Shown here: piece after piece, positions 33,131 through 50,021 of the stretch
How the letters are laid out: each line of letters starts with the position of its first letter
How positions within the stretch are numbered: position 1 is the stretch's first letter
NCBI GenBank assembly: GCA_965205385.1
Contig: CBDBGS010000008.1
Coordinates: 745,752-809,751, forward strand
DNA: 64,000 nt
Reading direction: 5' to 3'
Origin: Dehalococcoidia bacterium
Lineage (GTDB): Bacteria; Chloroflexota; Dehalococcoidia; Lucifugimonadales; UBA3495
Notes under the pieces: model-generated
What the model saw: only the letters and a program-made list of their open reading frames with translations
What the model was told of the DNA's origin: nothing
Databases searched by the model: none
Program-made: the position numbers and the translations under genes

Positions 33131-33315
33131 TCCAGATGGTGGATCAGGGGAAAGAGTTGAATCAGCTCTGTCCCCGACCCAATTAAGTTTACTGTAGATG
33201 AAGCCGATGCACTACCATAGGACCCTGCTCTTAATCATGCTTGTGATGGTTTCAGGTGTTATCCTCGAGACAGTTCAGAGTTTCGAAGTCTGACGGATGT
33301 GGGCAGAATGCAAAT

Positions 33316-33552: not shown

Positions 33553-33962
33553 CGTCGGTCGTTGATGCGTCAGTGTTCGTCTCCGCACTAGTTGACCCTG
33601 GTCCGGAAGGCCAATGGTCGGAGATTGCCATGATCAGTGATGATCTGGCCGGTCCCGAATTGGCCTTGGCGGAAGCCTGCAATCTTTTGCGTCGATTAGA
33701 GCAATCCATCCTAATCACGCGTTCAGAGGCTGACAGGCTTCATGAACAGCTGCTTAGGGTCGAGATCAGGCTCTTTGGGTATGGGCCCTATGCCGAGAGA
33801 ATATGGCAGCTACGTTCGAATTTGACCTGCTATGACGCCTGGTACGTTGCCCTAGCCGAGGACCTAGACTGCCCTCTGATCACACTTGACCTCAGGCTCA
33901 GCCGCTCCACCGGACCGAGCGGCGAGTTTGTCACGCCACCGCCTAGGCAGACAAGCGAATAA
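33549..33962 (+). CDS. vapC: type II toxin VapC (PIN domain RNase)
   Basis: A GTG start at 33549 gives ~137 aa. The acidic PIN residues sit in VVDASVF, LALAEACN, CYDAWYVALAE and LITLD. Confidence 0.7.
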   Translation: MTSVVDASVFVSALVDPGPEGQWSEIAMISDDLAGPELALAEACNLLRRLEQSILITRSEADRLHEQLLRVEIRLFGYGPYAERIWQLRSNLTCYDAWYVALAEDLDCPLITLDLRLSRSTGPSGEFVTPPPRQTSE

Positions 33963-34408: not shown

Positions 34409-35065
34409 TCAGTCAACCGTAAAATCGGAAGGGTAAAGGCGGTGAAGTTTGGTTCGTGCGTCCCGGGTGTTGAACCGCCAGTTGATGGTGGCTCTGGCGG
34501 CGTTGCGCTCCGTGACCAGAGCATCGACTTCCCGCCGGAGGGCCTCCTCGCCGGAGAGCCGCTGCTTCAGGCAGGAGCGGGACAGGACGCTGAACTCGAT
34601 CTCCGCCATATTCAGCCAACTCCCGTGCTTGGGGGTGTAATGAAACTCCAGCCGCCTGGCTATCCGCCGGGCTTCCTCAGCCGGGAAAGTCTCGTACAGC
34701 GATGCCCGGCGATGGGTGTTCAGATTGTCCAGGACAACCCTTACCACCTCGGCTTCCGGGTAGGCTTCATCCGCCAGCCAGCGCATCCGGCGGGCGAAGT
34801 CTTGCATCGTGCGTCGCTCCGTGACCGCCACCTCTCGCCAACCTGCCAAGGGCTCGCAGGCCAAGAACAGGTTGCGGGTACCCTCCCGCCGGTATTCGTA
34901 GTCCTGCCGCAGCGGAAGTCCCGGCCGGGGCGGCAGAGCGGGCCGGGTCTCCGCCAACAACTGGGTGGATGTCTCGTCAAAACAGACCACCGGACGTTGG
35001 GGATCATAGGGTTCGGCGTAGAGATCCAGGACATCCTCCATGTTAGCCACAAATTCCGCGCTCAC
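34409..35065 (-). CDS. IS630 transposase, DDE catalytic part (orfB)
   Basis: 218 aa with the DDE_3 pattern (VVCFDETS...VLDNLNTHR...WLNMAEIEF). The -1 frame upstream reads ...KKNALKPWQKKEWCIPKVSAEF, the usual contiguous IS630 sequence. Confidence 0.8.
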   Translation of the reverse strand: MSAEFVANMEDVLDLYAEPYDPQRPVVCFDETSTQLLAETRPALPPRPGLPLRQDYEYRREGTRNLFLACEPLAGWREVAVTERRTMQDFARRMRWLADEAYPEAEVVRVVLDNLNTHRRASLYETFPAEEARRIARRLEFHYTPKHGSWLNMAEIEFSVLSRSCLKQRLSGEEALRREVDALVTERNAARATINWRFNTRDARTKLHRLYPSDFTVD

Positions 35066-35580
35066 CTTGGGAATGCACCACTCCTTCTTCTGCCACGGCT
35101 TGAGGGCGTTTTTTTGAGACGCTGGCGCACCCCCTCGTGGGACATGGAGGGCGTCAGCCCCAACTCGACCACCTTCCCGGCCAACAGACGCAGGGTCCAG
35201 TGGTCATGCCCTTCCGGCGGCGGGCTGCAGGCCAAGGCGATCAGGTGGGCTTCGCCACGGTCGTCCAACTTCCGGGGCCGGTTGGCCTGGGGACGGTCCT
35301 GCAAAACCCCCTCCAACCCTTCTTCGGCAAAGCGCTGCTTGACCCGGTATACGGTGCTCAGGGCCACATCCAAAGCTTCGGCCACTTGGGGCGCCGCCCA
35401 ACCGTCGTCGCTCTTTAGGAGAATCTGCGCCCTGGCGGTCACTCGGGCTGAGCTTTTCCCAACCCGGATCAGTCGCTGGAGTTCTTCCCGTTGTTCCTGT
35501 GCCAGCCCCACTGCGTACTTGTCCCTCATCATGACGCCACCCTCCACCATCAACACTTCCCACCAGGCAGGATAGCTCAA
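35062..35580 (-). CDS. IS630 transposase, N-terminal HTH part (orfA)
   Basis: 172 aa with HTH and winged-helix segments (LSTVYRVKQRFAEEGLEGVLQDRP). It ends shortly after an A7 run. Confidence 0.8.
   Translation of the reverse strand: MSYPAWWEVLMVEGGVMMRDKYAVGLAQEQREELQRLIRVGKSSARVTARAQILLKSDDGWAAPQVAEALDVALSTVYRVKQRFAEEGLEGVLQDRPQANRPRKLDDRGEAHLIALACSPPPEGHDHWTLRLLAGKVVELGLTPSMSHEGVRQRLKKTPSSRGRRRSGAFPR
35109..35115 (-). other. A7 slippery run joining transposase orfA and orfB (-1 frameshift site or frameshift mutation)
   Basis: The minus strand reads CTC AAA AAA ACG. A -1 slip after the second AAA yields L-K-K-N-A-L-K-P-W, the canonical IS630 junction. Confidence 0.5.
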
Positions 35581-36363
35581 TTGGCCCCTTTCTTAAATAA
35601 ATACCAAAACCAAGTTGACTGACTACTAGGGATTAGCCGTCAAACTATCTACAACTGGGGGAATCGGGGCAAGCTGCCGCCGTGCTACATCCTGGGGCGG
35701 CGGACTCGGCGATGGAACCGCAAGGAATTTATGGAATGGCTCGAAGCACGGCGGGTTAGGCGGGAATATGACGAACAGCGAACCTAAAACAATCTGTTGG
35801 CGGACGGGAAGAAATCGCGCCGGGACGCAACCGGCGCGAAATCAACCGTGGAAGTGTCTACCAATGCGAGACAGGTCCATACCAAGTCTAGCCTAACGTC
35901 AATCCCGCTACCGCCTACGCCGGCACGTTTCCGGTGGGCGCTCATGGTCAACGGGATAGGCGTTAGGTATGACGTTCGCGGCCTACGCAATCAAGCACAG
36001 CTACCCGGCAAGGAAGAATGGACAGACATTACGGATGGCGTAGCAGCCAAGATACGGGAAACCCTGGCAACCGTGCCATTCCCGATACGCAACCGGGACG
36101 GGTTTATAGAGGATGCGGGCGGGATACTCCAAACCAATACCCAACACTTCCATGAATTGATGGTCAACGCCTGCGCGTTCAATGCGGCGGACCCTTTGAT
36201 CGAATACTTCGACGATCTACCGCGTTGGGACGGTCTGCCGCGCCTTGGAGCGTGGCTTTTCCATTGTTTCGACGTTGCCGACGAATCCCTAGAGTTATCG
36301 GAGTGGGCGGGAACGTTCGTGTTCCTCGGTTCGGTATGGCGGGCAAAGCAACCCGGCGTCAAG

Positions 36364-37777
36364 CTAGTACTACAGTCGCAGATTAAAAACGGATAGAATT
36401 GGGGCAATCAGCGGGTGGTGAGGTGAGGCTGTGGTTGTTGTGAGGGATGAGGTTGCGGAAGTGGCTCGGTGGGCCGAGGGCATCGAGCGGGTACACGAGT
36501 GCATCGGTGGACGGTTCCGGCGTCCGGAGCCGCGGCGGCGGGCGCTGGACTATCTGAAGGGGTTGCTCAGCCCGGTGGAGCGCAAGAACGGCTGGCAATT
36601 GGCGGAGCGGGCAGGCGACGCCACTCCCGATGGGGTGCAGCGCCTGTTGTACAACTACCAGTGGGACGCGGACCTGGTTCGCGATGACTTGAGGAGCTAC
36701 GTGATCGAGCGTCTGGCCGACGCTGCGGCAGTTCTGGCGGTGGATGAAACCGGATTCCTCAAGAAAGGAGACAAGTCGGTTGGGGTGCAGCGTCAGTACA
36801 GCGGCACGGCGACGGATCGAGAACAGTCAGATTGGCGTATTCTTGGCCTATGCCAGTGCCAGGGGGAGGACGCTGCTGGACCGGGAGTTGTACCTGCCCC
36901 AGGTGTGGGCGGAGGACTTGGAGCGCCGGCGGGAGGCCGGTGTGCCGGAGAGTGTCGGCTTTCGGACCAAGCCGCAACTGGCGCAGCTGATGCTGGAGCG
37001 GGCGGTTGAGTCGGGAGTGCCCTTCGGCTGGGTGGCCGGGGACGAGGTCTACGGCAACGACCGCAACCTGCGGCTGTGGCTGGAGCGAGAGGGCGTTCCC
37101 CACGTGCTGGCCATCAAACGCAGCGAGAAGCTATGGGCTTTGACGGACAGGGGGCCGCGACAGGTGAGGGCCGACCGTCTGGCCTCAGGGGTTGAGGAAT
37201 GCGCTTGGGTGAGGTGCAGCGCCGGGGACGGAGCCAAGGGACCACGGATCTACGACTGGGCCACTGTGGAAATACGTCCCCTGAGGGAGCCTGGCAAGGG
37301 CTATTGGCTGCTGGCCCGGCGCAGTCTGGCCAACCCGGGGGAGCTGGCCTACTACGTCTGTTACGGCCCGGCGGGAACGACCCTGGAGGAACTGGCGAGG
37401 GTGGCCGGGACCCGGTGGGCCATAGAGGAGTGCTTCGAGGAGGCCAAGGGACAGGTGGGGCTGGACCAGTATGAAGTGCGGAGGTGGGACGGCTGGTACC
37501 GGCACATCACGTTGGCGATGTTGGCCCACGCGTATCTGTCCGTGATCAAGCATCAGGCCATGGAACAGGGAGAAAGGGGGGCTACTACGGCCCGGATGAA
37601 GAGCTGATTCCCATGACAGCGCCGGAAGTGCGCCGACTGCTCACCCGCCTCGTATGGACGGAGAACCAACTGCCTGATTTCATCCTGTATTGGTCGTGGT
37701 GGAGACGACGCCACCAAGCCAGAGCCCGGCGTTGCCATTACCAACGACGACTTTCTAATCTGCGACTGTAGTACTAG
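36364..37777 (+). mobile_element. IS701-family-like insertion sequence with CTAG target duplication
   Basis: The ~25-bp terminal inverted repeats are TAGTACTACAGTCGCAGATTAAAAA and the reverse complement of TTTCTAATCTGCGACTGTAGTACTA. CTAG is present at both junctions (36364-36367, 37774-37777). Confidence 0.8.
36431..37607 (+). pseudogene. IS701-family DDE transposase, frameshifted
   Basis: ORF 36431-37009 ends its meaningful part at ...[27 protein letters not shown] 36744-37607 carries on with [15 protein letters not shown]...WAIEECFEEAKGQVGLDQYEVR in another frame. The junction at about 36810 lacks 2 nt (or has 1 extra) relative to the usual QYSGTAGRIEN. Confidence 0.7.
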
Positions 37778-38564
37778 ACGAAATGCCAGTAATCACCGGG
37801 AAGGGCGGTATCGGCAAGTCTACCGCCTTGCGGTGTGTCCTACCGCCATCGCTCCAGTACACATTCACGGATGGGCTGAACCTAGCGGCCAACCCGAAGG
37901 AACGTATCGAAGCGTTACAGGGGCGCTCCATCGTGGAAGCGGCGGAGATGCAAGGCGCAAGGCGAGCCGATATTGAATCTCTCAAGGCGTTCCTATCGCG
38001 TACCGACGATGGCAGCACGCGGCTATCCTACCGCCACAACCCGGAACCAATGCCCAGGCGGTGCATAATCGTAGGCACAGCCGACCGGCCCGACCCGCTA
38101 CCCGATGATCCCAACCTACGCCGATTCGTTCCGATCACACTCACAGGCGGAAGCCCGCAAGACGTTATGGAATTTCTGGACGAATGGCGGGACCAACTCT
38201 GGGCCGAGGCACTCTACCTTTACGATCACGGCGAGAGCGCACGGCTACCAGATGAATTGAAAGCACTACAGAAGGAAGCCACCGAGTCCGCACGTTCCCG
38301 CGATTCCGTGCTTGAAGATTTGATAGAGCGATGGCTAGAGGATGGACGTGACCTATTCACCATTGAAGCGGTAGCCACAGGCATAGGACTAACAGACATG
38401 GGTAAGTCCGCTAGGCTATCGCCCTATGACACCAAGCGCATATCGGGAGTGCTACGGCAAAAGGGCTTTGCATCAGTGTCCAAGCGCATCGACGGCAAGA
38501 CAGTACGCCGATGGGCGTTACTACCCGTTACAGATTCAGACCAATTCTAGGCACGATTGACCAA

Positions 38565-38754: not shown

Positions 38755-39120
38755 ATGGCAACACATCTAATCTACGGCAAAGCCACGAACCGTATCAGAG
38801 GTGCGTCGGAAATTCACACATATTGCGGTGAGGTAATAGCCGAAGATCACCCAGATTTCGCCGCTTTGCGTGATTACGAGCCGGATCACACAGCCACCTT
38901 TTTCGCGACCATCTTCAACGACATACCTGACCTGTGTGAAGCGTGCCACCAAAAGGTTTTATCGCCGAGGATATACCACATTGACTCGGATAACGGACTG
39001 ACATATTGTGGATTGGATGCGGCCGAGGTTTGGACTGGCGGCCCGTTCATCTCCCCCTTATGCCAACCATGCCGCAATGGCTTGATTTCCGAACATCCGC
39101 TGTTTGGTGCTGCCAACTAG
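38755..39120 (+). CDS. hypothetical Cys-rich protein (island)
   Basis: 121 aa preceded by a GGGAGGA RBS. It has CxxC-like pairs (CEACHQK, CQPCRNG). No family assignment. Confidence 0.45.
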   Translation: MATHLIYGKATNRIRGASEIHTYCGEVIAEDHPDFAALRDYEPDHTATFFATIFNDIPDLCEACHQKVLSPRIYHIDSDNGLTYCGLDAAEVWTGGPFISPLCQPCRNGLISEHPLFGAAN

Positions 39121-39212
39121 CCCGGTTATGGCACCGCCGAAAATCCTTGGAGGGGCGTACCAGCGTTGGGCGGAGTGACGAACTACGTAGATACAAGAAA
39201 GAGGGAGGCAAG

Positions 39213-39572
39213 ATGAACAGACAAGGCAGCGATATGACCATTGGGCATGCTTTTGCGGCCCGATGGCTTGTCAGGAAATATGCTGAATACAAGAGCAATC
39301 CCAGAATGCAGCAGCGACAACCTGAACTTCCTCAGCCTGACGAGCTTGCCCAGCGAATTGCTGATGCTGTCGATTCCCATGTAGAACAGAAAATTCTTGA
39401 GCTTCGCATCAAGTTGCACGCTGTTGCTGTAGAGGTGGCGGATGGGACAGAGGGTTCCAAAGACCAAGTTGTGATCAGTTCGGATGAATTACTACAAGAC
39501 CGAGCTTTGGTACAGGTGGCCCACGAGTGCTTAAACACAACCTTAAGCGCGATGCACAAATTTCCCGTCTAA
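39213..39572 (+). CDS. hypothetical protein, positional candidate for a small terminase subunit
   Basis: This uses the internal ATG of track ORF 39006, preceded by AGAGGGAGG. It is 119 aa and sits directly upstream of, and overlapping, TerL. The call is positional only. Confidence 0.35.
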   Translation: MNRQGSDMTIGHAFAARWLVRKYAEYKSNPRMQQRQPELPQPDELAQRIADAVDSHVEQKILELRIKLHAVAVEVADGTEGSKDQVVISSDELLQDRALVQVAHECLNTTLSAMHKFPV

Positions 39573-41068
39573 TAGCCAGTCTTGAGTCCGCACCAGTAGG
39601 AGACGGCGATCTGGTGGGGCAACCGTTCAAGTGTCTGCCCTACCAGCGGCGTTTCCTTCGCGGTGCGTTCAAGCCGGGTGTGCTTCGGGCTGGCCTGAGT
39701 CTGGCCCGTGGTGGCGGTAAGAGTGGCTTGGCGTCGGCCTTGGCCCTGGACGCCATCCGGCCCGCCGGGGTGCTGCATCGCCAAGGCTTCGAGGTGGTGC
39801 TGATAGCGTCATCATTCCAGCAGGCCAGGATTATTTTTGAGGCGGTGCGGACTTCCCTGGAGCTAATGGGCGAAGATGGCGACTACCGCATCCGCGACCA
39901 GCAGAACCTTGCGGACATTCAGCACCGGGAGACAAAGGCGCGGTTGCGGGTTGCCGGTGCTGACAACCGGAGGGCGCACGGCTGGCGCGTCAATCTCGTG
40001 ATCGGCGATGAACCTTCACAGTGGGGTCCAAGGGGCGAGCTACTGGCGGCTGCTATCCGCACGGCATTGGGCAAGCGGAAGGATGCGCGGGCGCTGTTCA
40101 TAGGTACCCGGCCAGCGAGTGATGCTCACTTTTTCGCCAGGTTGCTTGAGGAAGATGACCCTTCCGTTTTCTCACTTGTCTATGCCGCCGATATGGATGG
40201 CAATCCTTTCAGCGCGAAGACCTGGCGCAAGGCCAACCCCGCCCTGAGCTACGGGTTGCCAGACATGGAAGTGTTGCGGGCTGAGGCGCGGCTTGCGAAG
40301 CGCGATCCTGCGGAGTTGGCGACGTTCCGCAGTCTCCGGTTGAATCAAGGCACCAGTGAAGTCGAATCTCGGATGCTCATTGACGCAATGACCTGGCGAG
40401 AGGTGGAAACGGAGGAACTGCCGCCACGCGAAGGACCGGTGAGTTTCGGTGTCGATCTTGGTGGAACTGCTGCCTTCAGTGCTTGTGCCGCCTACTGGCC
40501 GCGTTCGGGAAGGCTTGAAGGCTTCGTAGCCTGTGGCAATGATCCCGTATTGCCGGAAAGGGCGCTGGCCGATGGTGTCAGTGGCGTTTATGAAGCGATG
40601 CGTGACGCCGGTGAACTGGTGCAGCTTGGCGGGCGCGTGGTGCCCGTTGGCCCGTTCCTAGTGGAGTCGGTGCTGCGGTACGGGAAGCCGCAAGCGGTGG
40701 CGGCTGACCGTTGGCGATCCGGTGAACTTGAAGACGGTGTGCGCGAGGCGAGGTTGAGTCTGCCTGAACCAACATGGCGCGGGCAGGGGTGGCGTGATGG
40801 TGGCGTTGACGTGCGGCTGTTCCGGTCTGCGGTGCTGGAGGGGAAGGTGGCGGCACCTGTAAGCCTAGCCATGCGCGCGGCTCTTGCTGAGGCTAGGACG
40901 GTGGCGGACAACAGTGCCAACGAGAAGCTGGCGAAGTCCGGCGAAGGGCAACATAGGCGGCGCGGTAGAGATGATCTGGCAGCCGCTATCGTGCTGGCCG
41001 TTGCTGAGGGAACACGGCGTGAGGCGTCCAGGGAAGTCAAGAAGTGGCGTTATCGGGGCGTGGCGTGA
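39527..41068 (+). CDS. terL: phage terminase large subunit (Terminase_1-like)
   Basis: 513 aa with Walker A LARGGGKSG and Walker B LVIGDEPSQW. It has the LPYQRRFLRG N-terminal block and a C-terminal RNaseH-like nuclease half. The exact start is uncertain. Confidence 0.75.
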   Translation: MLKHNLKRDAQISRLIASLESAPVGDGDLVGQPFKCLPYQRRFLRGAFKPGVLRAGLSLARGGGKSGLASALALDAIRPAGVLHRQGFEVVLIASSFQQARIIFEAVRTSLELMGEDGDYRIRDQQNLADIQHRETKARLRVAGADNRRAHGWRVNLVIGDEPSQWGPRGELLAAAIRTALGKRKDARALFIGTRPASDAHFFARLLEEDDPSVFSLVYAADMDGNPFSAKTWRKANPALSYGLPDMEVLRAEARLAKRDPAELATFRSLRLNQGTSEVESRMLIDAMTWREVETEELPPREGPVSFGVDLGGTAAFSACAAYWPRSGRLEGFVACGNDPVLPERALADGVSGVYEAMRDAGELVQLGGRVVPVGPFLVESVLRYGKPQAVAADRWRSGELEDGVREARLSLPEPTWRGQGWRDGGVDVRLFRSAVLEGKVAAPVSLAMRAALAEARTVADNSANEKLAKSGEGQHRRRGRDDLAAAIVLAVAEGTRREASREVKKWRYRGVA

Positions 41069-41352
41069 GCTGGCGAAAGGGACCGCCGATCAACCGGAGA
41101 CGGTGGGCGATAGTCCGCCGCCTTGTTTTTCAGCGCGACGGCTATAGATGCGTGGACTGCTCAAAGCCTGGACGCCTCGAATGTGACCATGTGGTGCCGC
41201 TTCACGTCAACCCTACCCAAGACCCTTACGACCTGGACGGGCTGAGAACACTTTGCCGGTCTTGCCATATCAGACTCACGGCGGAACAGAACCGCAAACC
41301 CAACCCTGGGCGTGACGCATGGCGAAAATTGATTGCGGAAATCGTAGTGTGA
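41065..41352 (+). CDS. HNH endonuclease
   Basis: A GTG start overlaps the TerL stop (GTGA). The sequence VFQRDGYRCVDCSKPGRLECDHVVPL...LRTLCRSCHI is the HNH motif. Confidence 0.8.
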   Translation: MSWRKGPPINRRRWAIVRRLVFQRDGYRCVDCSKPGRLECDHVVPLHVNPTQDPYDLDGLRTLCRSCHIRLTAEQNRKPNPGRDAWRKLIAEIVV

Positions 41353-41380: not shown

Positions 41381-42673
41381 ATGGATAGACCTGAGAGAAG
41401 AGAAATGACAGCAAGCCAACGCATTACCCTTCGTTTGTCCGCAGTCCGCAGCCGCTTGAACGAAATCGCCGGGGTAGAGGGTGACGACTTCACACCCGAA
41501 ATCAGGTCTGAGGCGGAAGCACTCCAACGGGAATACTCAGACCTGGAAACCCGCTACCGCTCCGCCACCATTGCCGAGTCCGCCGAAACCGAAACCCGCC
41601 AACACGACGAACCCGACCGGGAACTGCGGGAACGCATCGAACTGCGGGAACGGGCCACGCTCACCAACTACCTCCTGTCCGCTGCCCAGGGCCGGATGCC
41701 CCACGGCGCGGAACTGGAGCTACAGCAGGCGGCGGGCGTATCGGGAATCCCCGTTGAGCTTTTCGAGGTGCGCCAGCGCGAAACCCGCGCCGATGCGCCC
41801 ACAGGTTCACCCAGCACCGTGGGCGTCAACGTGGACCCGATTCGCCCGATGATCTATGCCCGTGCGGTGCTGCCCCGGTTGGGAGTGGCCATGCCTCGCG
41901 TGGAATCCGGCACCTACGCCACCATGACCATCACGGCGGACCTCAGTGCCGGGGCAATGGCGGCTGGGGCTGCCCGTGAGTCAACGGCGGCGACACTGAC
42001 GCCCAAGACCACCACCGCGCACCGGGTAAGCGGAAGGCTTTCCATCCGCATTGAGGACGTGGCCACCGTAGGCGTGGGCAACTTCGAATCCAGCTTGAGG
42101 CAGAACCTGACGCTTGTAATGTCTGACGAATTGGACAAGCTGGGTCTGACGGGTGATAACCAGGCTCCCAACCCGCAAGGACTGTTGCCCCAACTGACGG
42201 ACCCGACCGACCCGACCGATGCCGTCAACTTCGATGCCTTTGTCGAGGCGGTGGCCGGTGGAATCGACGGCGGGCCGTGGGCCGAATCCATGACGGCGGT
42301 GATGCTGCTGGTGAACCCGGAGACGCTGCGGAAGGCTGAAACCACCTTCCAGAGCGCCACCAACTACAAGGGTGAACTGAGCGCAGCCGCCTACATCCGG
42401 GCCAACAGCGCGGGTTTCTTTTCCAGCCGCTGGATGCCCGTCACGGCCAGCACAATAGCCCAAGCAATCCGCTACCGGCGCGGCACCATGGGCCTGGACG
42501 GGGTGGACGCCATGCGGACGGCGGTATGCCCGATGTGGAACGAAGTCAGCATTGACGACATATACTCCGATTCTGCCAGCGGTATCCGCCATTTCACGCT
42601 CCACAACCTGATAGGCGACGTGCTGATTGAGCAAACCGACGCCTATGAGCGGATAGACCTGAAGTTGGCATAG
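41381..42673 (+). CDS. HK97-fold major capsid protein with an N-terminal coiled scaffold (delta)-like domain
   Basis: 430 aa. The first ~130 aa are charged and helical. The rest has Phage_capsid-like blocks, and the gene is followed by a prohead protease. Confidence 0.7.
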   Translation: MDRPERREMTASQRITLRLSAVRSRLNEIAGVEGDDFTPEIRSEAEALQREYSDLETRYRSATIAESAETETRQHDEPDRELRERIELRERATLTNYLLSAAQGRMPHGAELELQQAAGVSGIPVELFEVRQRETRADAPTGSPSTVGVNVDPIRPMIYARAVLPRLGVAMPRVESGTYATMTITADLSAGAMAAGAARESTAATLTPKTTTAHRVSGRLSIRIEDVATVGVGNFESSLRQNLTLVMSDELDKLGLTGDNQAPNPQGLLPQLTDPTDPTDAVNFDAFVEAVAGGIDGGPWAESMTAVMLLVNPETLRKAETTFQSATNYKGELSAAAYIRANSAGFFSSRWMPVTASTIAQAIRYRRGTMGLDGVDAMRTAVCPMWNEVSIDDIYSDSASGIRHFTLHNLIGDVLIEQTDAYERIDLKLA

Positions 42674-42682: not shown

Positions 42683-43339
42683 ATGGACTACCCGATATTT
42701 GACGGTGAGCTTGCTGTTGAAACTCGCCAAGATGGGGAGGGGCGGACTATCCGCGCCAGCTTCCCGTATAACCGCGTGGCCACCATCTCCTCGACCGGGC
42801 GCACAAGAAAAGAGGTGTTCCGCAGCGGTAGTCTTTCATGGCAAGTCCGCGAGTTTGAAAAGCTCCAACAGCAACTATCGGACACCATATCCGGGACGAT
42901 TTCCCGGTTTCAGCGTGACGCGGTGGAGGATGCCCTGGAAAAGCGAAATACGTTCCTGTTGGTGGGCCACGACTACAACCGGGCAATTGCCGACATGCGA
43001 TCCGGGACGTTGGCCGTGACGCATACCGATGATGCGGTCCTGCTACGCGCCGACATACCGGCTGAGGGGAAAGCGCCTAGCTGGGTAGAGGACGCCGTTA
43101 AGGGAATCAACGGCGGGCAAGTCCGGGGCGTGAGTCCTGGATTCCAAGTCCCGGCGCGACGTGGCGGGGAACGGCTGATACCGGAAGAGGGAGACGGCGG
43201 CGCGATGATGCGCGAGATCACGGACGCCGTAGCTTTCGAGTATTCGTTGCTGGCCCGCCCCGCGTACAGTGGCACCACCGTAGACGCCCGCGCCGATGAT
43301 CCCGCGCTGGTGCCACCTCGGAGACGGGTATGGCTCTGA
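42683..43339 (+). CDS. HK97-family prohead (maturation) protease, S78/U35 type
   Basis: 218 aa. LLVGHDYNRAIA...GQVRGVSPGF...EYSLLARPAY fits the prohead protease His/Ser block pattern. Confidence 0.7.
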   Translation: MDYPIFDGELAVETRQDGEGRTIRASFPYNRVATISSTGRTRKEVFRSGSLSWQVREFEKLQQQLSDTISGTISRFQRDAVEDALEKRNTFLLVGHDYNRAIADMRSGTLAVTHTDDAVLLRADIPAEGKAPSWVEDAVKGINGGQVRGVSPGFQVPARRGGERLIPEEGDGGAMMREITDAVAFEYSLLARPAYSGTTVDARADDPALVPPRRRVWL

Positions 43340-45279
43340 TAACCGCAGACGAATTCAGGGCTGCCCTTCGGCTTGGTGACGCACCGGAAGAAGTGGCCGA
43401 GGCCAACAGAATCTACACCTATGCTGTCGAGGCGGTAGAGAAGTACGCCTCCGGTGCCAGTGAGGCGGCGAAGTCTGAGGCGACCATCCGGCTAGGCTCC
43501 TACCTCTACGACCAACCCACTTCCAGCCGTGGCGACCACTACGCCGCAGCGGGACGAAACTCCGGTGCATGGGCCATCCTTGCGCCATACAGAATACGCC
43601 GGGCCGGGACCATAGGCGAGGCGGTCCAGATTGCCCGTGAGAGCGGTTCGCCAGGCAACCCCGTTATCGGCGTGGACGTTACAGGCGATATCCTGACCGT
43701 GACGTTTGCCGATGGGAGTATGGAAACCCACACTCTACCCGACACCGGCGTTGACCAAGTGGCGCGGGATAGCGCAGCGATGGCGGAAGCGACGGCGGCA
43801 GGGGCCGTTACGGACGCGGCCACCAACGCCTTGGCAGTTAGCGCGGCGCAGAGTACGGCGGATGGCAAGATAGACGAAGCCGATGCAAACATCCTGATAG
43901 CGGCGCACGCGGCCATAGTTACGGCGCACCATACGCCTCCCACTGGAGGCGCACCTACCTATACCCTGTTGGGTAGGGCATCTCTCACCACTAACCATTT
44001 TCTGTTCAGTGTGGAGCATGGAAACGTTCTCGCCGAAGAACTGATAAACGGCGAGGCGGAATCCCTTTTGCTTACGTTGACGGACTTCAACCGTCACTAC
44101 CATATATGGGAAATTCCGCTCCGGTGGCGCGACTACACCTACGGCCCTAACTACGAGTTTTACAAGGAATATGTCAACAATTCGACGGGCGCGGTTTCGG
44201 GCATGAACCTGGCGGTGGAGCGTAACACGTCCACAGCCGACACAACGGCCATTCTTAGCATGTTGACAACGGCGGTATTCGACACTGGCACACAATGCGC
44301 GGTGTACTCGGTAACTGGCGCTGGCGGAAGCGGTGGCGGCGGTGGCGGCGGGATGTTCTCTGGCACAGACCAACTAGCCAGAGACGCGGCGGCAACGGCG
44401 CAAGGTGAGATAGACACGCACGAGGCCAGCACTCATAACACCGACATAACGGCGCAAAGTACGGCGCTGAACGCACGGCAGACGGCGGAACAGGCGCAAA
44501 CCACGATTGAGACTCACGAGGCCAGCACCCATAACCACGACGCCACGGCGCGTACAGCGGCGGGGGCGGCGCAAAGTGAAATAGACGTGCATGAGGCGTC
44601 AACCCATAACCACGATGCCGGGGCACGTACAGCGGCGGCGAACGCACAGATAACGGCAGACACGGCGCAATCGGCTGCATCGGGCGCGCAATCCGATGCT
44701 GATACCGCGCAGACTACCGCCGGGCAAGCGCAAGCGACGGCGACGGCGGCGCAGACTGATATTGACAATCACGAGGCGTCAACCCACAACACCGATGCCG
44801 GGGCGCGCACGGCGGCGGCAAATGCTCAATCCGCTATCGAAGATCACGGACGCACAACCCATAACACCGATACCGTTGCCAGGAACGCGGCGGCGGCGGC
44901 GCAAACGGCGGCGGAAGCGGCGGCGGGCGGGCGGCCTACCGTGCTGTATGAAGCGGCAACGGCGGCGATTGGCGGGAGTACGGGGTTGATAACTGGCAAC
45001 GTGGTTTGCCCGGAAACTGGCGAGCTTGAATTCTATTTCGAGGGATTGACCGGCTCTCGGCAGGGCGGCGTTGCCTACGCTCGGATACCGGCGGCAAGGA
45101 TACGGGGCGCGGTGTCTGCGCTTACGACTGCCTACAACAATGACAATGAAAACGTGCTGGTAATCGCGCACGGGGCAAACCGTGGAATTGGGATAGCAGT
45201 ACAAGCGACCACCAACTATCTAATGCTGAACGCGCAGGCGGCGGGAAACCATTACATTCGCATATCGCACATAGCCTAG
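43330..45279 (+). CDS. gp6-like head-tail connector domain fused to a 550-aa repeat-containing extension
   Basis: The N-terminal ~100 aa (ITADEFRAALRLGD...IRLGSYLYDQ...ILAPYRIRR) fit Phage_connect_1. A globular segment and a poly-Gly tract (GAGGSGGGGGGG) follow. Then come five I(D/E)xHEASTHN(T/H)D...AR(T/N)AAxxAQ repeats and a C-terminal domain. The stop TAG is part of the CTAG target of the IS. Confidence 0.6.
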   Translation: MALITADEFRAALRLGDAPEEVAEANRIYTYAVEAVEKYASGASEAAKSEATIRLGSYLYDQPTSSRGDHYAAAGRNSGAWAILAPYRIRRAGTIGEAVQIARESGSPGNPVIGVDVTGDILTVTFADGSMETHTLPDTGVDQVARDSAAMAEATAAGAVTDAATNALAVSAAQSTADGKIDEADANILIAAHAAIVTAHHTPPTGGAPTYTLLGRASLTTNHFLFSVEHGNVLAEELINGEAESLLLTLTDFNRHYHIWEIPLRWRDYTYGPNYEFYKEYVNNSTGAVSGMNLAVERNTSTADTTAILSMLTTAVFDTGTQCAVYSVTGAGGSGGGGGGGMFSGTDQLARDAAATAQGEIDTHEASTHNTDITAQSTALNARQTAEQAQTTIETHEASTHNHDATARTAAGAAQSEIDVHEASTHNHDAGARTAAANAQITADTAQSAASGAQSDADTAQTTAGQAQATATAAQTDIDNHEASTHNTDAGARTAAANAQSAIEDHGRTTHNTDTVARNAAAAAQTAAEAAAGGRPTVLYEAATAAIGGSTGLITGNVVCPETGELEFYFEGLTGSRQGGVAYARIPAARIRGAVSALTTAYNNDNENVLVIAHGANRGIGIAVQATTNYLMLNAQAAGNHYIRISHIA

Positions 45280-47069
45280 AAACCGGGCCGAAAAGTCCTG
45301 GTTGGGTAGGGGGATTTGGGCAATAAAGCCGACGTGAGCAGGATCACGGACCACAGTTGTCCGAGCCGGACCGCGCAGAAATTGGCCGCAGCATGGGCGA
45401 CAACAAAGGGGACAATATTGAGGACGACGCTGCGGCCTGTTGCGCCGCCACCGGTACGGCCCGACCGCCCGAGTTTCCCGGCCACCAGGGTCAGGTTGGC
45501 TACCGTGGCAGCCAGATACAGCTGGAATCGCGTCTTGACCCTGCCGAAATAGCGGGACTGGCGAATGCCCAACTGGACCAGCCGGGCCAACCGGTGTTCC
45601 ACCACCACTCGGCGCACTCGATATTCGTCATAATGAGTGCTTTGCTGCAACGCTCGGGCCTGCTGCAGCAGGGCTTCCTGGGGATGGATCAGCACCCGCC
45701 GCCCCCTACTCCCCTTGGCTGCGATGCACTGGGACCGCAGTGGACATGTCCGACATTCGGCCCCGTCGAACTGGAAGGCCTGCAAGCGGTGGACCCGCCC
45801 TGTGCGACCCGTCCGCTTTCCCGCCGGCACGATGGTGTGGGTAACCTGTCCGGCGGGACAGGTGCAACTGCCCGCGGCCAGGTCAATATGGAAGTCCTCT
45901 TTCGGAAAGTGCTTCCGGTCGGGCCGTCCCGGCACTCTGGCCACCAACCGGCGTCCCGCATCGGCGAATGCCTGCCTGGTATCGCCATCCCCATAGGCGG
46001 CGTCGCCCATGGCTTCCTCCACCGGCACACCGGTGTTGGCCTCGCTCTGCTCCACCAATTCCAGCGATCCCAGGTTGTCCGGAGCGTTGCCGGGCAATAC
46101 CTCCACCGCGGTGATCAGCTGGGAGTCGGTGTCCACCACGATGGCCGCCTTGTGTCCGTCGAACCGTCTACTGCTGCTCTTGTGGCCGTGGCGCATCTCC
46201 GGGTCATGCACCGACATCATCCGGTCCCGGCTCACCCCGTCCTTGAGATTCACTCCGTCATCGGTCCGCTCCACGTCCTGGAGCAGCAACTGCCCCAGCA
46301 GTTCCGCCGCCGCCACTATCTGCTGCCGCTCAGCGCTATCCTCCCCCAATTCCCTCTGCGCCTGCCGCGACAACTCCAACAACCGGTCGGCGTCTCTCAC
46401 AATCTCGGCCAGCAGGGCCTGCCGCGCCCGTTTGTCGCTCCAGTCGATGGCCGACTCACCCTTCACGCTGGAACCCAGGTACCGCTCATATCCCCGGGCC
46501 TTGGCCCATTCTTTGACGCTGGACTTCTCCACTGCCGCCAGCGCCCGCAACAGCTTGACGATCCCGTCCGCCAACAGATTGTAGGTGTCCTTCACCGCGC
46601 CACGGCCCAGGATGTTGGTCGTGTCCAACGCCACCCGCATCCCGCGCCCTTTCAGATACCCCGACTCCCGGGCCAAACGCAGGCTGGACTCGAACACCTC
46701 CCGCACCTTGCCGTGCAGTATCAGCTGGGCGCGGAACACCTGCAGCGTGCTCTTGGCGAAGGGACGGTCTTCCACCTCAATCCCCAAGGCCACCTTCCAC
46801 CGGATGTCGAAGTCGGCCCGGGCCTTGGCCTCAGCGTCGCTCACCTTGTCGTGGGACTGGAGCAGGAGCGCCGTCGCCAGCAGGCTGGGCGGCACGCTGT
46901 CCCGGCCGTTGTCGGCGCAGTAGAACCCGGCGAAATCGGGGTCCCGGAACAGGCGGCCCCGCAGCGAGGCCAGCAGACCGTAGAAGGTGTCCCGCCCCAC
47001 GTGGTCCAGATACAACCGGTCTGCTTCCCAGAGGCCCCTCTGGTCCGACCGCTCTCCCAGCATGCTCAA
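45276..47069 (-). CDS. IS1182-family transposase (DUF772 N-terminal + DDE domain)
   Basis: 597 aa. GRDSVPPSLLATALLLQSHDKVSDAEAKARADFDIRWKVALGI is the DUF772 block. It also has the zinc-ribbon-like CTCPAGQ...CRTCPLRSQC and a C-terminal DDE region. Confidence 0.8.
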   Translation of the reverse strand: MSMLGERSDQRGLWEADRLYLDHVGRDTFYGLLASLRGRLFRDPDFAGFYCADNGRDSVPPSLLATALLLQSHDKVSDAEAKARADFDIRWKVALGIEVEDRPFAKSTLQVFRAQLILHGKVREVFESSLRLARESGYLKGRGMRVALDTTNILGRGAVKDTYNLLADGIVKLLRALAAVEKSSVKEWAKARGYERYLGSSVKGESAIDWSDKRARQALLAEIVRDADRLLELSRQAQRELGEDSAERQQIVAAAELLGQLLLQDVERTDDGVNLKDGVSRDRMMSVHDPEMRHGHKSSSRRFDGHKAAIVVDTDSQLITAVEVLPGNAPDNLGSLELVEQSEANTGVPVEEAMGDAAYGDGDTRQAFADAGRRLVARVPGRPDRKHFPKEDFHIDLAAGSCTCPAGQVTHTIVPAGKRTGRTGRVHRLQAFQFDGAECRTCPLRSQCIAAKGSRGRRVLIHPQEALLQQARALQQSTHYDEYRVRRVVVEHRLARLVQLGIRQSRYFGRVKTRFQLYLAATVANLTLVAGKLGRSGRTGGGATGRSVVLNIVPFVVAHAAANFCAVRLGQLWSVILLTSALLPKSPYPTRTFRPGF

Positions 47070-47142
47070 GCCCTCGCTATTTCTTGATGGCTCAAGTATA
47101 GCTGACCACCCGGCTGAAGCCAGTTTCCGGCCACGTTTCTAG
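45276..47142 (-). mobile_element. IS1182/IS5-superfamily insertion sequence in the intergenic CTAG
   Basis: The imperfect terminal inverted repeats are CTAGAAACCGGGCCGAAAAGT (45276-) and the reverse complement of CAGTTTCCGGCCACGTTTCTAG (-47142). CTAG is at both ends. Removing the element restores ...ISHIA-TAG followed by an AGGGG RBS and the next gene's ATG. Confidence 0.7.
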
Positions 47143-47151: not shown

Positions 47152-47496
47152 ATGCCAGCCGACCGCCTAATCACCGTCAACCTCACAGGGGAAGGTATGC
47201 GGAACCAATACGGGGAATACGTCGAGGGCGAAGTTACGCCTATACGGACGTGGACAAGGCGGCGTGACAAGACACAAGAGGATATTGAATCTGAGGGGGG
47301 CGTCCTAACGAGTGTGCAACGTACTTGGCGCATTAGGTGGGACAGCAGGATAGCGGACGTTCCAGTGGTGCGCATCGAGGTGGTGGATGGGCCGTACACC
47401 TTCAACGTACTGAATCAAGTTGAGGTCACCGAGCAACGAGGCGGGCCAGACCTGCGGCGCAGGTTCATAGACATTGAAGGAGTGTACACCAGCTAA
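47152..47496 (+). CDS. phage head closure / head-tail adaptor protein
   Basis: 114 aa. Size, position and the TWRIRWDSRI...Y.F.V block are typical of the Phage_H_T_join family. Confidence 0.55.
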   Translation: MPADRLITVNLTGEGMRNQYGEYVEGEVTPIRTWTRRRDKTQEDIESEGGVLTSVQRTWRIRWDSRIADVPVVRIEVVDGPYTFNVLNQVEVTEQRGGPDLRRRFIDIEGVYTS

Positions 47497-48557
47497 TGCG
47501 TTTCCCATGGCAAAAGCGTGAAACAAGGCAAAGCGGCGGTGACTTCTCCGATGCCGTTGTCAGACTGATTGAAGCTCAGGCGGCGGGAACTGCTGCGGAC
47601 GCTTCCAGCACGGCGGCGGTGGAGGCGGCGTCTGGTGCGCTTTCACGGGCGTTTGCCATTGCCGAGGTAGTTGGAGACGGTTGGGTACAGGAAGCCGTGT
47701 CTCCGGCGTTCCTGGCGCAAGTGGGGCGTGATCTGGTTAGGTCGGGCGACTCATTGCATGTCATCGAAATGGACGGCAAGGGCAACGTGACCCTGTTGCC
47801 GTGTTCTTCATGGCACTTCGAGGGTGACGCTCACCCGGACACCTGGACCGTGCGGGCCACCTACTACGGGCCTAGCAGCAGCAGCACTCGGCACCTGCCC
47901 TTTAGCGGCGTGGTGTTCGTGAAGTGGGGCAGCACACCCGGTCAACCCTACACCGGCACGGGACCGCTATCGTGGGCGCATACCACCGCCAGACTTCAAT
48001 CCGAAACCGAACGCAGCCTTACCGACGAGGTACAAGGTCCATTGGCGCAAATCATAGCCATACCGCAAGATGGAGGTGACGGCGGCGAAGATGATCCGCT
48101 GGCGGAACTGAAAGCCGACATTCGGACGGCAAGAGGCCGCGCCCTGTTGGTGGAGACGGCGGCGGCGGGTTGGGGTGAGGGCAGAGGTGCCGCACCACAA
48201 CGCGACTGGCAAGCAAGCCGCCTTGGGCCGATGCCGCCGGAGAGCATGGCCACCATACGCAAGGACTCCTTTGGTTCGGTGGTGGCGGCGTGTGGCGCAT
48301 CGCCCGCCCTGTTCGACGACTCCGACGGCACCAGCAAGCGGGAAGCACTGAGACAGTGGCACATGGGAACGGTGCGGCCATTGGCGCGGCTGTTGGAAAC
48401 GGAGCTTACCGCCAAGCTGGAAACGCCGGTCAAGCTGACATTCGACGCCTACTCCCTGGACATCGCGGGGAGGGCGCAGGCGTTCAAGGCTTTCGTGGGC
48501 GGCGGGATGGACGTTAACGAGGCGTTGGTCAAGACGGGGTTGATGGACCCGGACTAA
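47496..48557 (+). CDS. HK97-family phage portal protein
   Basis: 353 aa. The start overlaps the previous stop (TAATG). It has Phage_portal-like central and C-terminal blocks (...ESMATIRKDSFGSVVAACGASPALF..., LETELTAKL). Confidence 0.65.
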   Translation: MRFPWQKRETRQSGGDFSDAVVRLIEAQAAGTAADASSTAAVEAASGALSRAFAIAEVVGDGWVQEAVSPAFLAQVGRDLVRSGDSLHVIEMDGKGNVTLLPCSSWHFEGDAHPDTWTVRATYYGPSSSSTRHLPFSGVVFVKWGSTPGQPYTGTGPLSWAHTTARLQSETERSLTDEVQGPLAQIIAIPQDGGDGGEDDPLAELKADIRTARGRALLVETAAAGWGEGRGAAPQRDWQASRLGPMPPESMATIRKDSFGSVVAACGASPALFDDSDGTSKREALRQWHMGTVRPLARLLETELTAKLETPVKLTFDAYSLDIAGRAQAFKAFVGGGMDVNEALVKTGLMDPD

Positions 48558-48651: not shown

Positions 48652-49845
48652 TTAGAAGGGCGATTGATCGGGAGCCACCATATCGCCCCACGCTTCCATG
48701 ATCGGACGCCGCTGGTCGATTAGGTCTGACCGAAAGTACGCCGCTTCCACCGCGCCTAGCGGATTATGACTAAGGCAATACTCAATCGCTACGCGGTCGT
48801 ATGTTCCTTGTTCCGCTGCCCAATCTCGGAAGCTGGAGCGGAAGCCGTGCGGGTGTGCGCCGATATTGTTGACGCGGGCAAACTTGGATAGGCAATTTTC
48901 CGATGGTGCCTTGCCGAGCTTCGGGAACACCAAACCCGTACTATCCGCCAACTTCCGCTTGGCTTCCCGGAGAACATCGACGGCGGCGCGGGATAGTGGC
49001 TTGCGGTGTTCCTTGCAATCCTTGGAGCGGTCCGCCGGGATTGACCATACCCGATGGTCAAGGTCGATTTCTTCCCAACGTGCGCCGCGTGCTTCGGCAG
49101 ACCGTGAAGCGGTCAGAATTAGGAATTCAAAACACAACCGCGTTACGGTCATAGCTTCCGAATCCCGGATGGTGTTGATTGCGTCTGGAACCTGCGAGTA
49201 GTGAAGGGCGGTAAAGTGGCCTTGAATCTTGGGGATTGGCGGCAACGCTGCGCTGATAACTTCGCCAGCGGGATTTACGTCTATGTGACCTTCCGCCATC
49301 GCGTACCGGCAGACCTTGGACATCGCCTGGCGCATCTTCCGGGAGGTTTCAACCTTGGATACCCGGAGTCCCTTTAGGATGCAAATCACGTCCTGGCGGC
49401 TAACTTCGGTGATCGGGATATCGCCAATGACCGGGAGGACGTGCAATTCCATCTGCTGTATCCAAGTCTTACGCGCCTTGTCAGACCGCCAGCGGTTCGC
49501 GTAAACGTCCTGGACCGTGTACGTCAAATCCCGGAAGGTTGGGACGCCTTTGGATTCTTCGGACTGGACGCGAAGTTTGCCAGTGGCCCAAGGATTCCCA
49601 CCACCAGCAACAACTACGCGGTTGGCAAGGGCAAGGTCACGCGCCTTACTGAGCGAAATATCCTTGACGGAGCCGAGACCCTTATCTGTGCGCGTGCCGT
49701 CAACGGTGATTCTCTGGACCCAACTTTTGGAACCGCTAGGCGAGATGTTCAGGTATAGGCCGTTACCATCGCCATATCTTCCCGGTTCTTTTAGACTCTT
49801 TACCTTTGCCGCTACCAGTGCCATTTTGCCCACTCCCTTTACCAC
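48652..49845 (-). CDS. int: tyrosine recombinase, P4-type integrase with DUF4102 arm-binding domain
   Basis: GDGNGLYLNISPSGSKSWVQRI is the DUF4102 block. The catalytic region contains ...TASRSAEARGARWEEID..., HGFRSSFRDWAAE and LSH...AY. The likely true start is the ATG at 49824 (MALVAAKVKSLK). The start is about 105-125 nt from the tRNA 3-prime end. Confidence 0.85.
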   Translation of the reverse strand: MVKGVGKMALVAAKVKSLKEPGRYGDGNGLYLNISPSGSKSWVQRITVDGTRTDKGLGSVKDISLSKARDLALANRVVVAGGGNPWATGKLRVQSEESKGVPTFRDLTYTVQDVYANRWRSDKARKTWIQQMELHVLPVIGDIPITEVSRQDVICILKGLRVSKVETSRKMRQAMSKVCRYAMAEGHIDVNPAGEVISAALPPIPKIQGHFTALHYSQVPDAINTIRDSEAMTVTRLCFEFLILTASRSAEARGARWEEIDLDHRVWSIPADRSKDCKEHRKPLSRAAVDVLREAKRKLADSTGLVFPKLGKAPSENCLSKFARVNNIGAHPHGFRSSFRDWAAEQGTYDRVAIEYCLSHNPLGAVEAAYFRSDLIDQRRPIMEAWGDMVAPDQSPF

Positions 49846-49900: not shown

Positions 49901-49949
49901 ATTAGGCGTGGAAATCTATACCTAGAAGGGGCAAATACTGACCAATAAG

Positions 49950-50021
49950 TACCCCCGGAGAGAATCGAACTCTCGTCTCTGGCTCCGGAGGCCAGCACTC
50001 TATCCGCTGAGCTACAGGGGC
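49950..50021 (-). tRNA. tRNA-Arg (anticodon CCG), no encoded CCA
   Basis: The minus strand folds as acceptor GCCCCTG with D, anticodon and T arms, with anticodon loop CTCCGGA and T arm GAGAG-TTCGATT-CTCTC. The 3-prime acceptor strand is CGGGGGT followed by A. The acceptor stem has G-U pairs. Confidence 0.85.

Follow-up and report, generated by a model that had tools for sequence, protein, structure and literature searches.

A head-tail adaptor with a fibre-like C-terminal extension in a tail-less, probably phage-parasitic island of a Dehalococcoidia bacterium

The stretch of DNA analysed here, in the following called the window, comprises 64,000 nucleotides (nt) from the genome of a Dehalococcoidia bacterium (Chloroflexota; GenBank assembly GCA_965205385.1, contig CBDBGS010000008.1, positions 745,752 to 809,751). 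It harbours an integrase-bearing island with phage-type head and packaging genes. Within this island, at positions 43330..45279 of the plus strand, lies an open reading frame (ORF) of 649 amino acids (aa), which starts with ATG and joins a head-tail adaptor domain and a long, fibre-like extension in a single uninterrupted frame. A first-pass annotation, made from the sequence of the window alone, had pointed out that the frame continues past the connector domain without a stop; this is borne out by the intact ORF and by more than 120 homologues that keep the fusion. The GC content at third codon positions (GC3) is uniform along the whole ORF.

The N-terminal part, encoded at 43330..43608 of the plus strand (aa 1-93), is a head-tail adaptor domain of the Ad1 type in gp6 position and ends with LAPYRIRRAG. 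The AlphaFold2 (AF2) model of the adaptor is all-helical, with a predicted local distance difference test score (pLDDT) of ~90 for aa 1-60. When the N-termini of 27 family members were compared with the PHROG database, 11 matched phrog_40 'head-tail adaptor Ad1' (best E 8.5e-6), eight matched phrog_137 'Ad1' (E 5.7e-5), ten phrog_442 'head-tail adaptor' and six phrog_5938 'head-tail connector'; the protein of the window itself matched phrog_442 only, with an E-value of 0.032. The gene takes the place of gp6 in HK97, directly upstream of a gp7-type head-closure gene, and stand-alone relatives of ~90-110 aa (measured 96-108 aa) fill the same slot in syntenic islands. A profile search of the PDB with the domain returned nothing. 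Based on the PHROG Ad1 matches and the synteny, the identification of the N-terminal domain as a head-tail adaptor is well supported. The earlier label of a gp6-type connector is upheld by the same two lines, the Ad1 matches in family members and the gene order, and not by the Pfam family PF05135. The stretch of the first ~93 residues is an autonomous adaptor module, which stands alone in sister islands. It shares with adaptors of the HK97 gp6/SPP1 gp15 type (PHROG Ad1; PF05135, Phage_connect_1) a helical core of ~95 aa and a position 3' of the capsid and protease genes and 5' of a gp7-type gene. In contrast to HK97 gp6, which has 108 aa in total, it carries a covalent C-terminal fibre of ~555 aa.

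This extension begins with a linker helix (aa 94-106) and a three-stranded β-hairpin unit (aa 107-137, SPGNPVIGVDVTGDILTVTFADGSMETHTLP), which together are encoded at 43609..43740 of the plus strand. The hairpin unit was modelled with a pLDDT of 85-94 and follows the consensus GNPV-x-G-V-x-V-x-G-x-x-L-x-V-T-F-A-D-G-[TS]-x5-L-P, with G106, N110, V112 and D128 being invariant across the family. A hidden Markov model of the unit also matches large proteins that have no adaptor domain, namely P0208 with two copies and P0196, P0183 and P0197 with one copy each, and the region of aa 96-187 shows a weak match to phrog_8780 'minor tail protein'. It is followed by a hinge and a first coiled-coil segment (43741..43947, plus strand; aa 138-206), which starts with GVDQVARD and ends at the junction AHHTPPTG. 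AF2 places a long helix at aa 142-199 of this segment, and both the coil-start motif (DQxARD) and the junction motif (AHH[TV]PP.G) recur in relatives. Behind the junction lies an internal, aromatic-rich globular module (43948..44316, plus strand; aa 207-329), an orphan insert for which no relative was found among 5.8 billion proteins and whose GC3 equals that of the rest of the gene. A derivation from known phage proteins was rejected for the complete lack of relatives. The module and the C-terminal knob were also considered as paralogues and this was rejected, as the module has no detectable similarity to the knob of its own protein or to that of another island. The rod of other family members holds different globular inserts; hence, the insert slot of the rod is variable.

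Part of this architecture had been recognised in the first-pass annotation. What was described there as one globular segment is resolved into the linker helix, the hairpin unit (aa 107-137), the first coil (aa 138-206) and the orphan module (aa 207-329). The run of Gly residues was found as described: GAGGSGGGGGGG, read from the sequence at aa 330-341 (44317..44352, plus strand), forms a hinge, and Gly hinges stand before each coil restart in relatives.

After the Gly run the coil restarts with GTDQLARD and continues as a rod (44353..44928, plus strand; aa 342-533), in which heptad spacers rich in Ala, Gln and Thr are combined with five 11-residue His knots of the pattern [DE]xHxxxxHNxD. The knots, all on the plus strand, are DTHEASTHNTD (44413..44445; aa 362-372), ETHEASTHNHD (44509..44541; aa 394-404), DVHEASTHNHD (44584..44616; aa 419-429), DNHEASTHNTD (44764..44796; aa 479-489) and EDHGRTTHNTD (44839..44871; aa 504-514). 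On the DNA level, five diverged 91-nt repeats, 60-79% identical, are seen at 44387-44903. The five His repeats that had been noted at 44404-44910 are thus present, at 44413-44871 by protein and 44387-44903 by DNA, and only the assumed period of 30-40 aa has to be replaced by spacings of 25, 32 and 60 aa.

Across the family, the 11-residue knot [DE]-[AT]-H-E-[AR]-[ST]-[TP]-H-N-T-D was found 321 times in 121 proteins, with zero to six copies per protein. H3, H8, N9 and D11 are essentially invariant in these 321 instances, while position 10 holds Thr 262 times and His 43 times. From knot to knot the distances are 18, 25, 32, 39 or 46 residues, which corresponds to 7n+4; 25 or 32 residues account for 149 of the 202 intervals, and a minor class of 61, 68 and 75 residues is likewise stepped by seven. 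The spacings in the protein of the window, 32, 25, 60 and 25 residues, are all congruent to 4 modulo 7. Within the spacers A3, R4, A7, A10, Q11 and I/L14 show little or no variation, which gives a 4-3-4 core rhythm of Ala/Ala/Ala/Ile(Leu), and the first His of the following knot falls on the next core position. In the AF2 model, the helices of the rod are broken only by loops of six residues at S-T-H-N-T-D. With 321 family motifs and the modulo-7 spacing, the repeats lie, as a sequence pattern, far beyond chance. Pattern and model together bear the signature of a continuous, phased coiled coil with regular polar knots. Sequence and profile searches against the PDB identified no relative of the rod.

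Following an AAGG hinge, the protein ends with a knob domain (44929..45279 including the TAG stop, plus strand; aa 534-649). The first-pass annotation had expected a β-rich C-terminal domain here. A well-defined, conserved domain is indeed present, and its β-rich character is not backed by a confident model (pLDDT <50). Invariant residues of the knob are, in domain numbering, L12, P34, R50, N90, R91 and G112, of which the N-R pair forms a 'GANR' motif. Comparison of the window with L001, an intact island of the same family, gave identities of 29% for the capsid protein, 38% for the portal, 41% for the large terminase, 53% for the adaptor domain and 70% for the knob; the window knob is 72% identical to that of the island L003 and 88% to that of L007. 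That the knob is far more conserved between islands than capsid and portal is what is expected of a horizontally exchanged fibre module. Searches of Pfam with the whole protein and with five segments, the knob included, returned nothing at E-values up to 10. Peptidase_S74, covered by these searches, was matched neither by the window knob (E up to 10) nor by eight large knob-bearing proteins, and sequence and profile searches of the PDB with narrow and broad knob profiles gave no match. A Foldseek search with the full-length model was meaningless, as most of this model is of low confidence.

To follow the knob beyond the islands, its profile was searched exhaustively against 1.84 billion cluster representatives. 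It occurs in 72 representative clusters, which include proteins of 900-1850 aa. Some of these are further adaptor fusions, such as P0193 (909 aa) and P0202 (1118 aa, with the knob internal). Other clusters are free of an adaptor and consist of modular 530-1850-aa proteins with Gly hinges and D-H-x-H motifs, in which the knob lies at the C-terminus or close to it. One of them, P0197 (1846 aa), ends in a window-type knob and is encoded on the 70-kb phage-like contig L034 (L034:179-15541). Its gene lies 3' of a tape-measure gene (PF10145), of four plus-strand genes for 160-484 aa, the size of distal tail proteins, and of a short cluster of small ORFs on the opposite strand, which is the usual coding region of tail fibres. 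In agreement with this position, P0197 matches a PHROG 'tail fiber protein' family; it contains many Gly-hinged repeats with D-H-x-H motifs of the 'SRSDHVHEDRG' type. Since knob and hairpin unit are shared with proteins that are fibre-like or sit in tail-fibre position, the extension is assembled from building blocks of phage tail fibres. The fibre-like nature proposed in the first-pass annotation is therefore supported by the heptad-quantised spacers, by the knob in a protein in tail-fibre position and by the hairpin unit in fibre-like proteins. The contig of P0197 is a candidate relative of helper phages. On another contig, L035 (29.8 kb, carrying P0188), the same block of genes for 145, 346, 395, 360, 178, 134 and 119 aa occurs at both ends of the locus, suggesting that a small phage-like genome was assembled as a circle or concatemer; its 995-aa protein ends in the knob.

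The homologue search covered 5.8 billion proteins and gave 324 significant matches. The best 120 of these 324 are 360-781 aa long, and none of them is named or has a Pfam domain; among NCBI family members no database names were found either. The architecture of adaptor and extension in one frame is kept by more than 120 metagenomic homologues, found on contigs as large as 4 Mb. These homologues agree in their first ~200 residues, in the last ~115-140 residues and in the in-frame junction after the adaptor, and contain His repeats in varying number. Generally, a ~93-aa adaptor is followed in the family by the linker and β-hairpin unit, by Gly hinges, by a coiled-coil rod bearing zero to six knots and by a ~115-aa knob. 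The sequence following the adaptor is conserved as ..L-P-Y-R-[IV]-H-R-A-G-S-T-G-E-A-V-A-A-A-Q-E-A-V-G-T-x-G-N-P-V.. (also written ..RAG-T/S-x-GEAV..GNPV). This conservation marks the long form as an independently conserved fusion. By tblastn, no match was found in 50,697 phage genomes. The IMG/VR database, scanned with rod and knob, gave no match, and scanned with the adaptor it gave only two contigs, of 9.1 and 9.5 kb.

A genome scan with one genome per species yielded 27 loci, all in metagenome-assembled genomes (MAGs) and many on contigs of megabase size. The hosts belong to Dehalococcoidia/Chloroflexota, Alpha- and Gammaproteobacteria, Bryobacterales, Vicinamibacterales, Binatia, Thermodesulfobacteriota, Acidimicrobiia and Latescibacterota. 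All loci share the gene order integrase ... large terminase (TerL)-HNH-capsid-protease-X-head closure-portal, X being the adaptor gene. In ~13 islands X stands alone with 85-116 aa and stops a few residues past the RAG motif, the head-closure gene coming directly next; in ~14 islands various tails bring it to a length of 147 to more than 660 aa. The form with His repeats and knob is seen in only three of the 27 loci. As the extension is absent in about half of the sister islands, it is an accessory module. Whether connector and repeat protein are separate genes in homologous islands had been raised as a check in the first-pass annotation: the connector stands alone in about half of the islands, while the extension is never a genuine separate gene. 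In none of the scanned island loci was the knob found as a second, separate gene. The protein database does contain ~40 short 'knob-only' ORFs. These were rejected as genuine genes, because all four that were inspected are pieces of disrupted long genes, due to a frameshift in a GC-rich run of Ala codons (L031), to insertion sequence (IS) elements (L032 and L036, in L032 within a His knot) or to the truncation of an island, of which the ORF is a remnant (L037).

Fusions of other kinds also occur at this place. On the 9.5-kb IMG/VR contig (L030:3664-5934) the adaptor is joined to an entirely different, β-rich protein of ~650 aa, and in the above-mentioned P0193 and P0202 it is fused to very long, multi-module fibres, in both of which the knob is internal. 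The C-terminus of the adaptor is a general fusion hot spot.

At the 5' end of the adaptor-fibre gene, the first 10 nt overlap the 3' end of the gene of an S78 prohead protease (42683..43339, plus strand; PF04586). On the other side, an IS element (45280..47138, minus strand) is located between the fibre gene and the head-closure gene; its transposase ORF (45276-47069) belongs to DDE_Tnp_1_6/DUF772 in Pfam. The inverted repeats of the element lie at 45276-45294 and 47124-47142, both ends having the sequence CTAGAAAC, and the target duplication CTAG is found at 45276-45279 and 47139-47142, with the TAG stop of the adaptor-fibre gene inside the duplicated CTAG. Excision of the IS in silico restores ...ATAGCC-TAG-AGGGGTGTT-ATG, that is, the identical stop followed by the ribosome-binding site (RBS) and the start codon of the next gene, and L001, which has no IS, shows the same order of stop, RBS and ATG. 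Because the stop lies within the target duplication and L001 is arranged in this way, the ORF has been neither truncated nor extended by the IS, and both possibilities are ruled out. The IS sits exactly between the stop of the fibre gene and the RBS of the head-closure gene, and is probably polar on the expression of head-closure protein and portal. As for a lost stop codon, the first-pass annotation had reasoned that relatives ending after ~100 aa would speak for it. Such relatives exist; however, their head-closure gene follows directly and no fibre sequence is present. As these short-adaptor islands contain no fibre-coding DNA, the window copy is not the product of a point-mutated stop.

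The island spans the region from a VapE-like primase to the integrase, has otherwise only head and packaging functions and is flanked by ordinary chromosomal genes. The primase gene, on the plus strand, has been cut into two parts, 35797-36396 and 37783-38550, by a DDE_5 IS at 36431-37607, and is followed on that strand by the large terminase (39527-41068), an HNH endonuclease (41044-41352) and an HK97-type major capsid protein (41381..42673), assigned by a weak match to PF05065 and synteny. After protease, adaptor-fibre gene and IS come, also on the plus strand, the gp7-type head-closure gene as the partner of the adaptor (47152..47496) and the portal (47496..48557; PF04860, phrog_12). The former was assigned by synteny, its orthologues in L001 and L031 matching PF05521 Phage_HCP above cut-off. 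On the minus strand, a tyrosine integrase (48652..49845) adjoins a tRNA-Arg gene (49949-50021) at the right end of the island. No tail or lysis domains were found in the island or its flanks, nor in L001 or the 9-kb contig L029, in line with the earlier description as an element without tail genes. TerS and AlpA were not recognised; no dedicated profiles were used, and Pfam gave no match for two small ORFs (38755-39120 and 39006-39572) located upstream of TerL. A search for an att repeat shared by the tRNA-Arg region and the left part of the island gave none of at least 14 nt. Intact relatives measure ~9-10.5 kb, for example L001, in which VapE and integrase are intact, and the IMG/VR contigs of 9.1 and 9.5 kb. 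With its split primase and the IS between fibre and head-closure genes, the copy in the window looks immobilised and decaying.

Some further features lie around the island and its relatives. Another IS, of the DDE_3 type, is located at ~34409-35575, and near the ill-defined left end of the island a PIN-domain gene (33297-33962) adjoins a tRNA-Pro gene (33056-33130). A patch of low GC content at 54000-56000 (0.49 compared with ~0.59 elsewhere) contains a GmrSD-type restriction endonuclease (ORF 54483-55634, minus strand) and may be a small islet of defence genes. A single alphaproteobacterial MAG contig (L015:2600-18900) carries two islands of the family in tandem, so that the order TerL-HNH-capsid-X-portal occurs twice within 20 kb. 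The ~10-kb head-only island sits in the chromosomes of MAGs from no fewer than eight phyla or classes (L002-L028). Several of these MAGs are labelled 'Langseth' (Arctic sponge ground), and many others bear isolate identifiers in the style of symbiosis projects. Read from these labels only, the habitats suggest a habitat-linked, cross-phylum family of satellites.

In its gene content, the island matches phage-inducible chromosomal islands that form capsids (cf-PICIs), which have been defined by integrase, primase, terL, HNH, portal, protease, capsid, adaptor and connector genes, with tails and holins forbidden (PMC10085698). Like these, it is a ~10-kb integrase island with primase, TerL, HNH, capsid, protease, portal, adaptor and connector and without tail or lysis genes. 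It differs in that the window-type gene order has the portal last, and in its hosts: cf-PICIs reside in Enterobacteria and Firmicutes, the window-type islands in uncultured Chloroflexota, Acidobacteriota, Binatia, Thermodesulfobacteriota and others. cf-PICIs release tail-less capsids that later join free tails, and adaptor and connector decide which tails fit (10.1101/2025.02.11.637232). We regard the island as a probable phage parasite. In the cf-PICI literature searched, no description of a satellite with a fibre on its adaptor was found.

Neck-borne, segmented coiled coils with short non-helical inserts and a distal globular domain are familiar from T4 fibritin (wac) and from the neck passage structure or collar-whisker of lactococcal phages, with a presumed accessory function in adsorption. 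Neck fibres have also been described for cyanophage A-1(L) (PMC10966104). The extension of the window protein shares with such whiskers and collar fibres the heptad coiled coil, the short non-helical inserts and the distal globular domain. These are, however, separate proteins that dock non-covalently, whereas adaptor and fibre of the window form one polypeptide, which moreover lacks sequence similarity to any solved fibre or foldon. The large fibres of uncultured phages, P0197 and P0208 (1714 aa), have homologous knobs and hairpin units as well as Gly hinges and coil starts of the DQxARD type; they differ by the absence of an adaptor domain and by D-H-x-H motifs in place of the HExxxHNTD knot. 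P0197, the sole knob fibre of which the genomic position was checked, belongs to a tail module after the tape measure. With the Fe-binding HxH needle of T4 gp37, with gp12 and with the spike tips of P2 and phi92, the window fibre has in common regularly spaced, invariant His pairs, which by analogy make an axial metal site plausible. The closer likeness to HxH sites of the T4 gp37 type proposed in the first-pass annotation does not hold: in gp37 the HxH motif is part of an interdigitated β-needle, while the motif of the window protein is H-x4-H-N-x-D in a helical coiled coil, flanked by helices, and the triplet HNH is found in only 43 of 321 knots family-wide and two of the five in the window.

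We consider it rather likely that the gene encodes an adaptor to which a modular, adhesive neck fibre is covalently attached, and that the island, which bears an integrase, forms capsids and has no tail genes, is of the cf-PICI type. This overall picture is far less certain than the fusion and its fibre nature; still less certain are the adhesive role and the binding of metal, suggested by analogy. If the gene product acts in this way, twelve adaptor domains would ring the portal after DNA packaging, the head-closure ring would dock below them and the tail of a helper phage would then join. The twelve extensions would project from the neck and associate, in the simplest case by threes into four fibres, as suggested both by the Ala/Ile core and by the three-fold logic that phage fibres follow. 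At the knots, His, Asn and Asp may form axial polar or metal-binding layers that staple short and weak Ala-cored coiled-coil segments. The knob, and in the window copy also the orphan module, might contact a ligand on the cell surface or in the matrix, so that a satellite head with a borrowed tail would gain an adhesion step encoded by the satellite itself, comparable to that of neck whiskers or collar fibres.

Other explanations have to be weighed against the adhesive neck fibre. One is that the fusion is an artefact, in which a lost stop, an assembly error or read-through caused by the IS joined the connector to an unrelated ORF. An IS abutting the 3' end of the ORF, a decaying island copy and stand-alone adaptors of ~95 aa in relatives would all fit. 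This is nevertheless effectively refuted by the more than 120 independent homologues with continuous frame and junction on contigs up to 4 Mb, by the pre-insertion sequence, which rebuilds the TAG, RBS and ATG seen in L001 without an IS, and by the lack of fibre-coding DNA in short-adaptor islands together with the uniform GC3. More weight, albeit that of a rather unlikely account, is due to a purely structural extension, one that folds back onto the capsid as cement or decoration or else makes an inert collar, its knob nucleating folding or trimerisation and binding no ligand. No other part of the protein is as well conserved as the knob between islands from different host phyla, and one and the same knob is reused at the tips of, or inside, very different fibre proteins. 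Reuse at fibre tips is typical of C-terminal chaperone or trimerisation domains such as those of the Peptidase_S74 type or the T4 foldon, and an unfolded AF2 monomer is expected of an obligate intertwined oligomer. Then again, the knob matches neither Peptidase_S74 nor another chaperone domain in Pfam, and in P0180, P0183, P0185 and P0202 it is internal, with 150-500 residues following, which is the wrong place for a cleaved terminal chaperone. About half of the sister islands do without the extension, so it is not needed for capsid stability, and the variable inserts of the rod resemble adaptive binding modules more than cement.

Two further accounts assign the fibre a role in obtaining or replacing a tail. 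It could bind free tails or side fibres of helper phages and steer them to the neck of the satellite, raising the efficiency or breadth of tail piracy. The tail-less capsids released by cf-PICIs do need free tails, and adaptor and connector govern tail compatibility (10.1101/2025.02.11.637232). The protein that has been fused is exactly the one involved in tail choice, and modules common to the fibre and phage tail fibres could allow homotypic contacts. Without precedent, and with a rod of more than 190 residues whose distal knob points away from the docking site, such a capture appears quite improbable; docking is normally achieved by a separately encoded head-closure or stopper ring, and half of the sister islands lack the fibre. 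Very improbable is a self-sufficient delivery, in which adaptor-fibre and head-closure protein would build a rudimentary podovirus-like tail and make a helper tail unnecessary. It would reconcile the absence of tail genes with the wide distribution and constant size of the islands (9.1 and 9.5 kb in IMG/VR), and the element does encode a fibre with a tip of the tail-fibre type. The islands, however, contain no genes for a nozzle, a needle, a tape measure or lysis, and as about half of them carry the bare ~95-aa adaptor, the fibre is no general delivery device. The gp7-type head-closure proteins of HK97 and SPP1, moreover, are docking platforms for long tails.

Several results weigh against the adhesive neck fibre on a satellite adaptor. 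The adaptor assignment itself is not backed by Pfam PF05135, which was matched by neither the query nor 22 family N-termini nor nine stand-alone relatives at E-values up to 1-10, so that the adaptor assignment does not extend to strict membership of the Pfam gp6 family; HK97 gp6 itself reaches only 25.6 bits with this profile. Foldseek of the model of aa 1-141 (pLDDT 79.7) against PDB and BFVD gave nothing at E ≤0.001, its top matches aligning the hairpin only, and hhalign of the N-terminal profile with the single HK97 gp6 sequence returned a probability of 0.1. The two putative binding modules lack solved or annotated relatives, and AF2 gave no confident fold for the orphan module (pLDDT ~30) and did not model the knob (pLDDT <50). 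The conservation of the knob, as opposed to the usual hypervariable receptor-binding tips, is no less compatible with a nucleus of folding or trimerisation, or with a common, non-specific ligand, than with a specific receptor binder. Twelve covalent chains do not simply map onto trimeric fibres, and the window copy may no longer be expressed. Particle formation, the location and oligomeric state of the fibre and its binding of metal or ligand are what we infer from the features described above.

What is new in this protein is the covalent display on an adaptor of a cf-PICI-like satellite, the phased His-knot rod and the knob shared with phage tail fibres; the components are of known kinds and do not define a new category. 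Three uncharacterised and widely reused fibre modules, the phased His-knot coiled coil, the hairpin unit and the 'GANR' knob, have no Pfam, PDB or database name, and are targets for structural work and for the annotation of tail fibres in uncultured phages. Fusions at the C-terminus of the adaptor are tolerated over a range from 50 to more than 1000 residues, which is useful for display engineering on phage or satellite particles. As the island in the window is decaying, its biology is better pursued in an intact relative. More tentatively, and as a possibility that we hold well below the reading itself, satellites across phyla may use the adaptor as a display platform for phage-derived fibre or receptor-binding modules, giving them host recognition or retention of their own, independent of the pirated tail, with the rod as an undescribed type of metal-stapled, Ala-cored coiled coil of strict 7n+4 spacing. 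For satellites that build their own heads and steal tails, the host range is assumed to come wholly from the stolen tail. If the neck fibre is what it appears to be, it would give the satellite an influence of its own on the cells and surfaces that are bound, which bears on the spread of the family across phyla.

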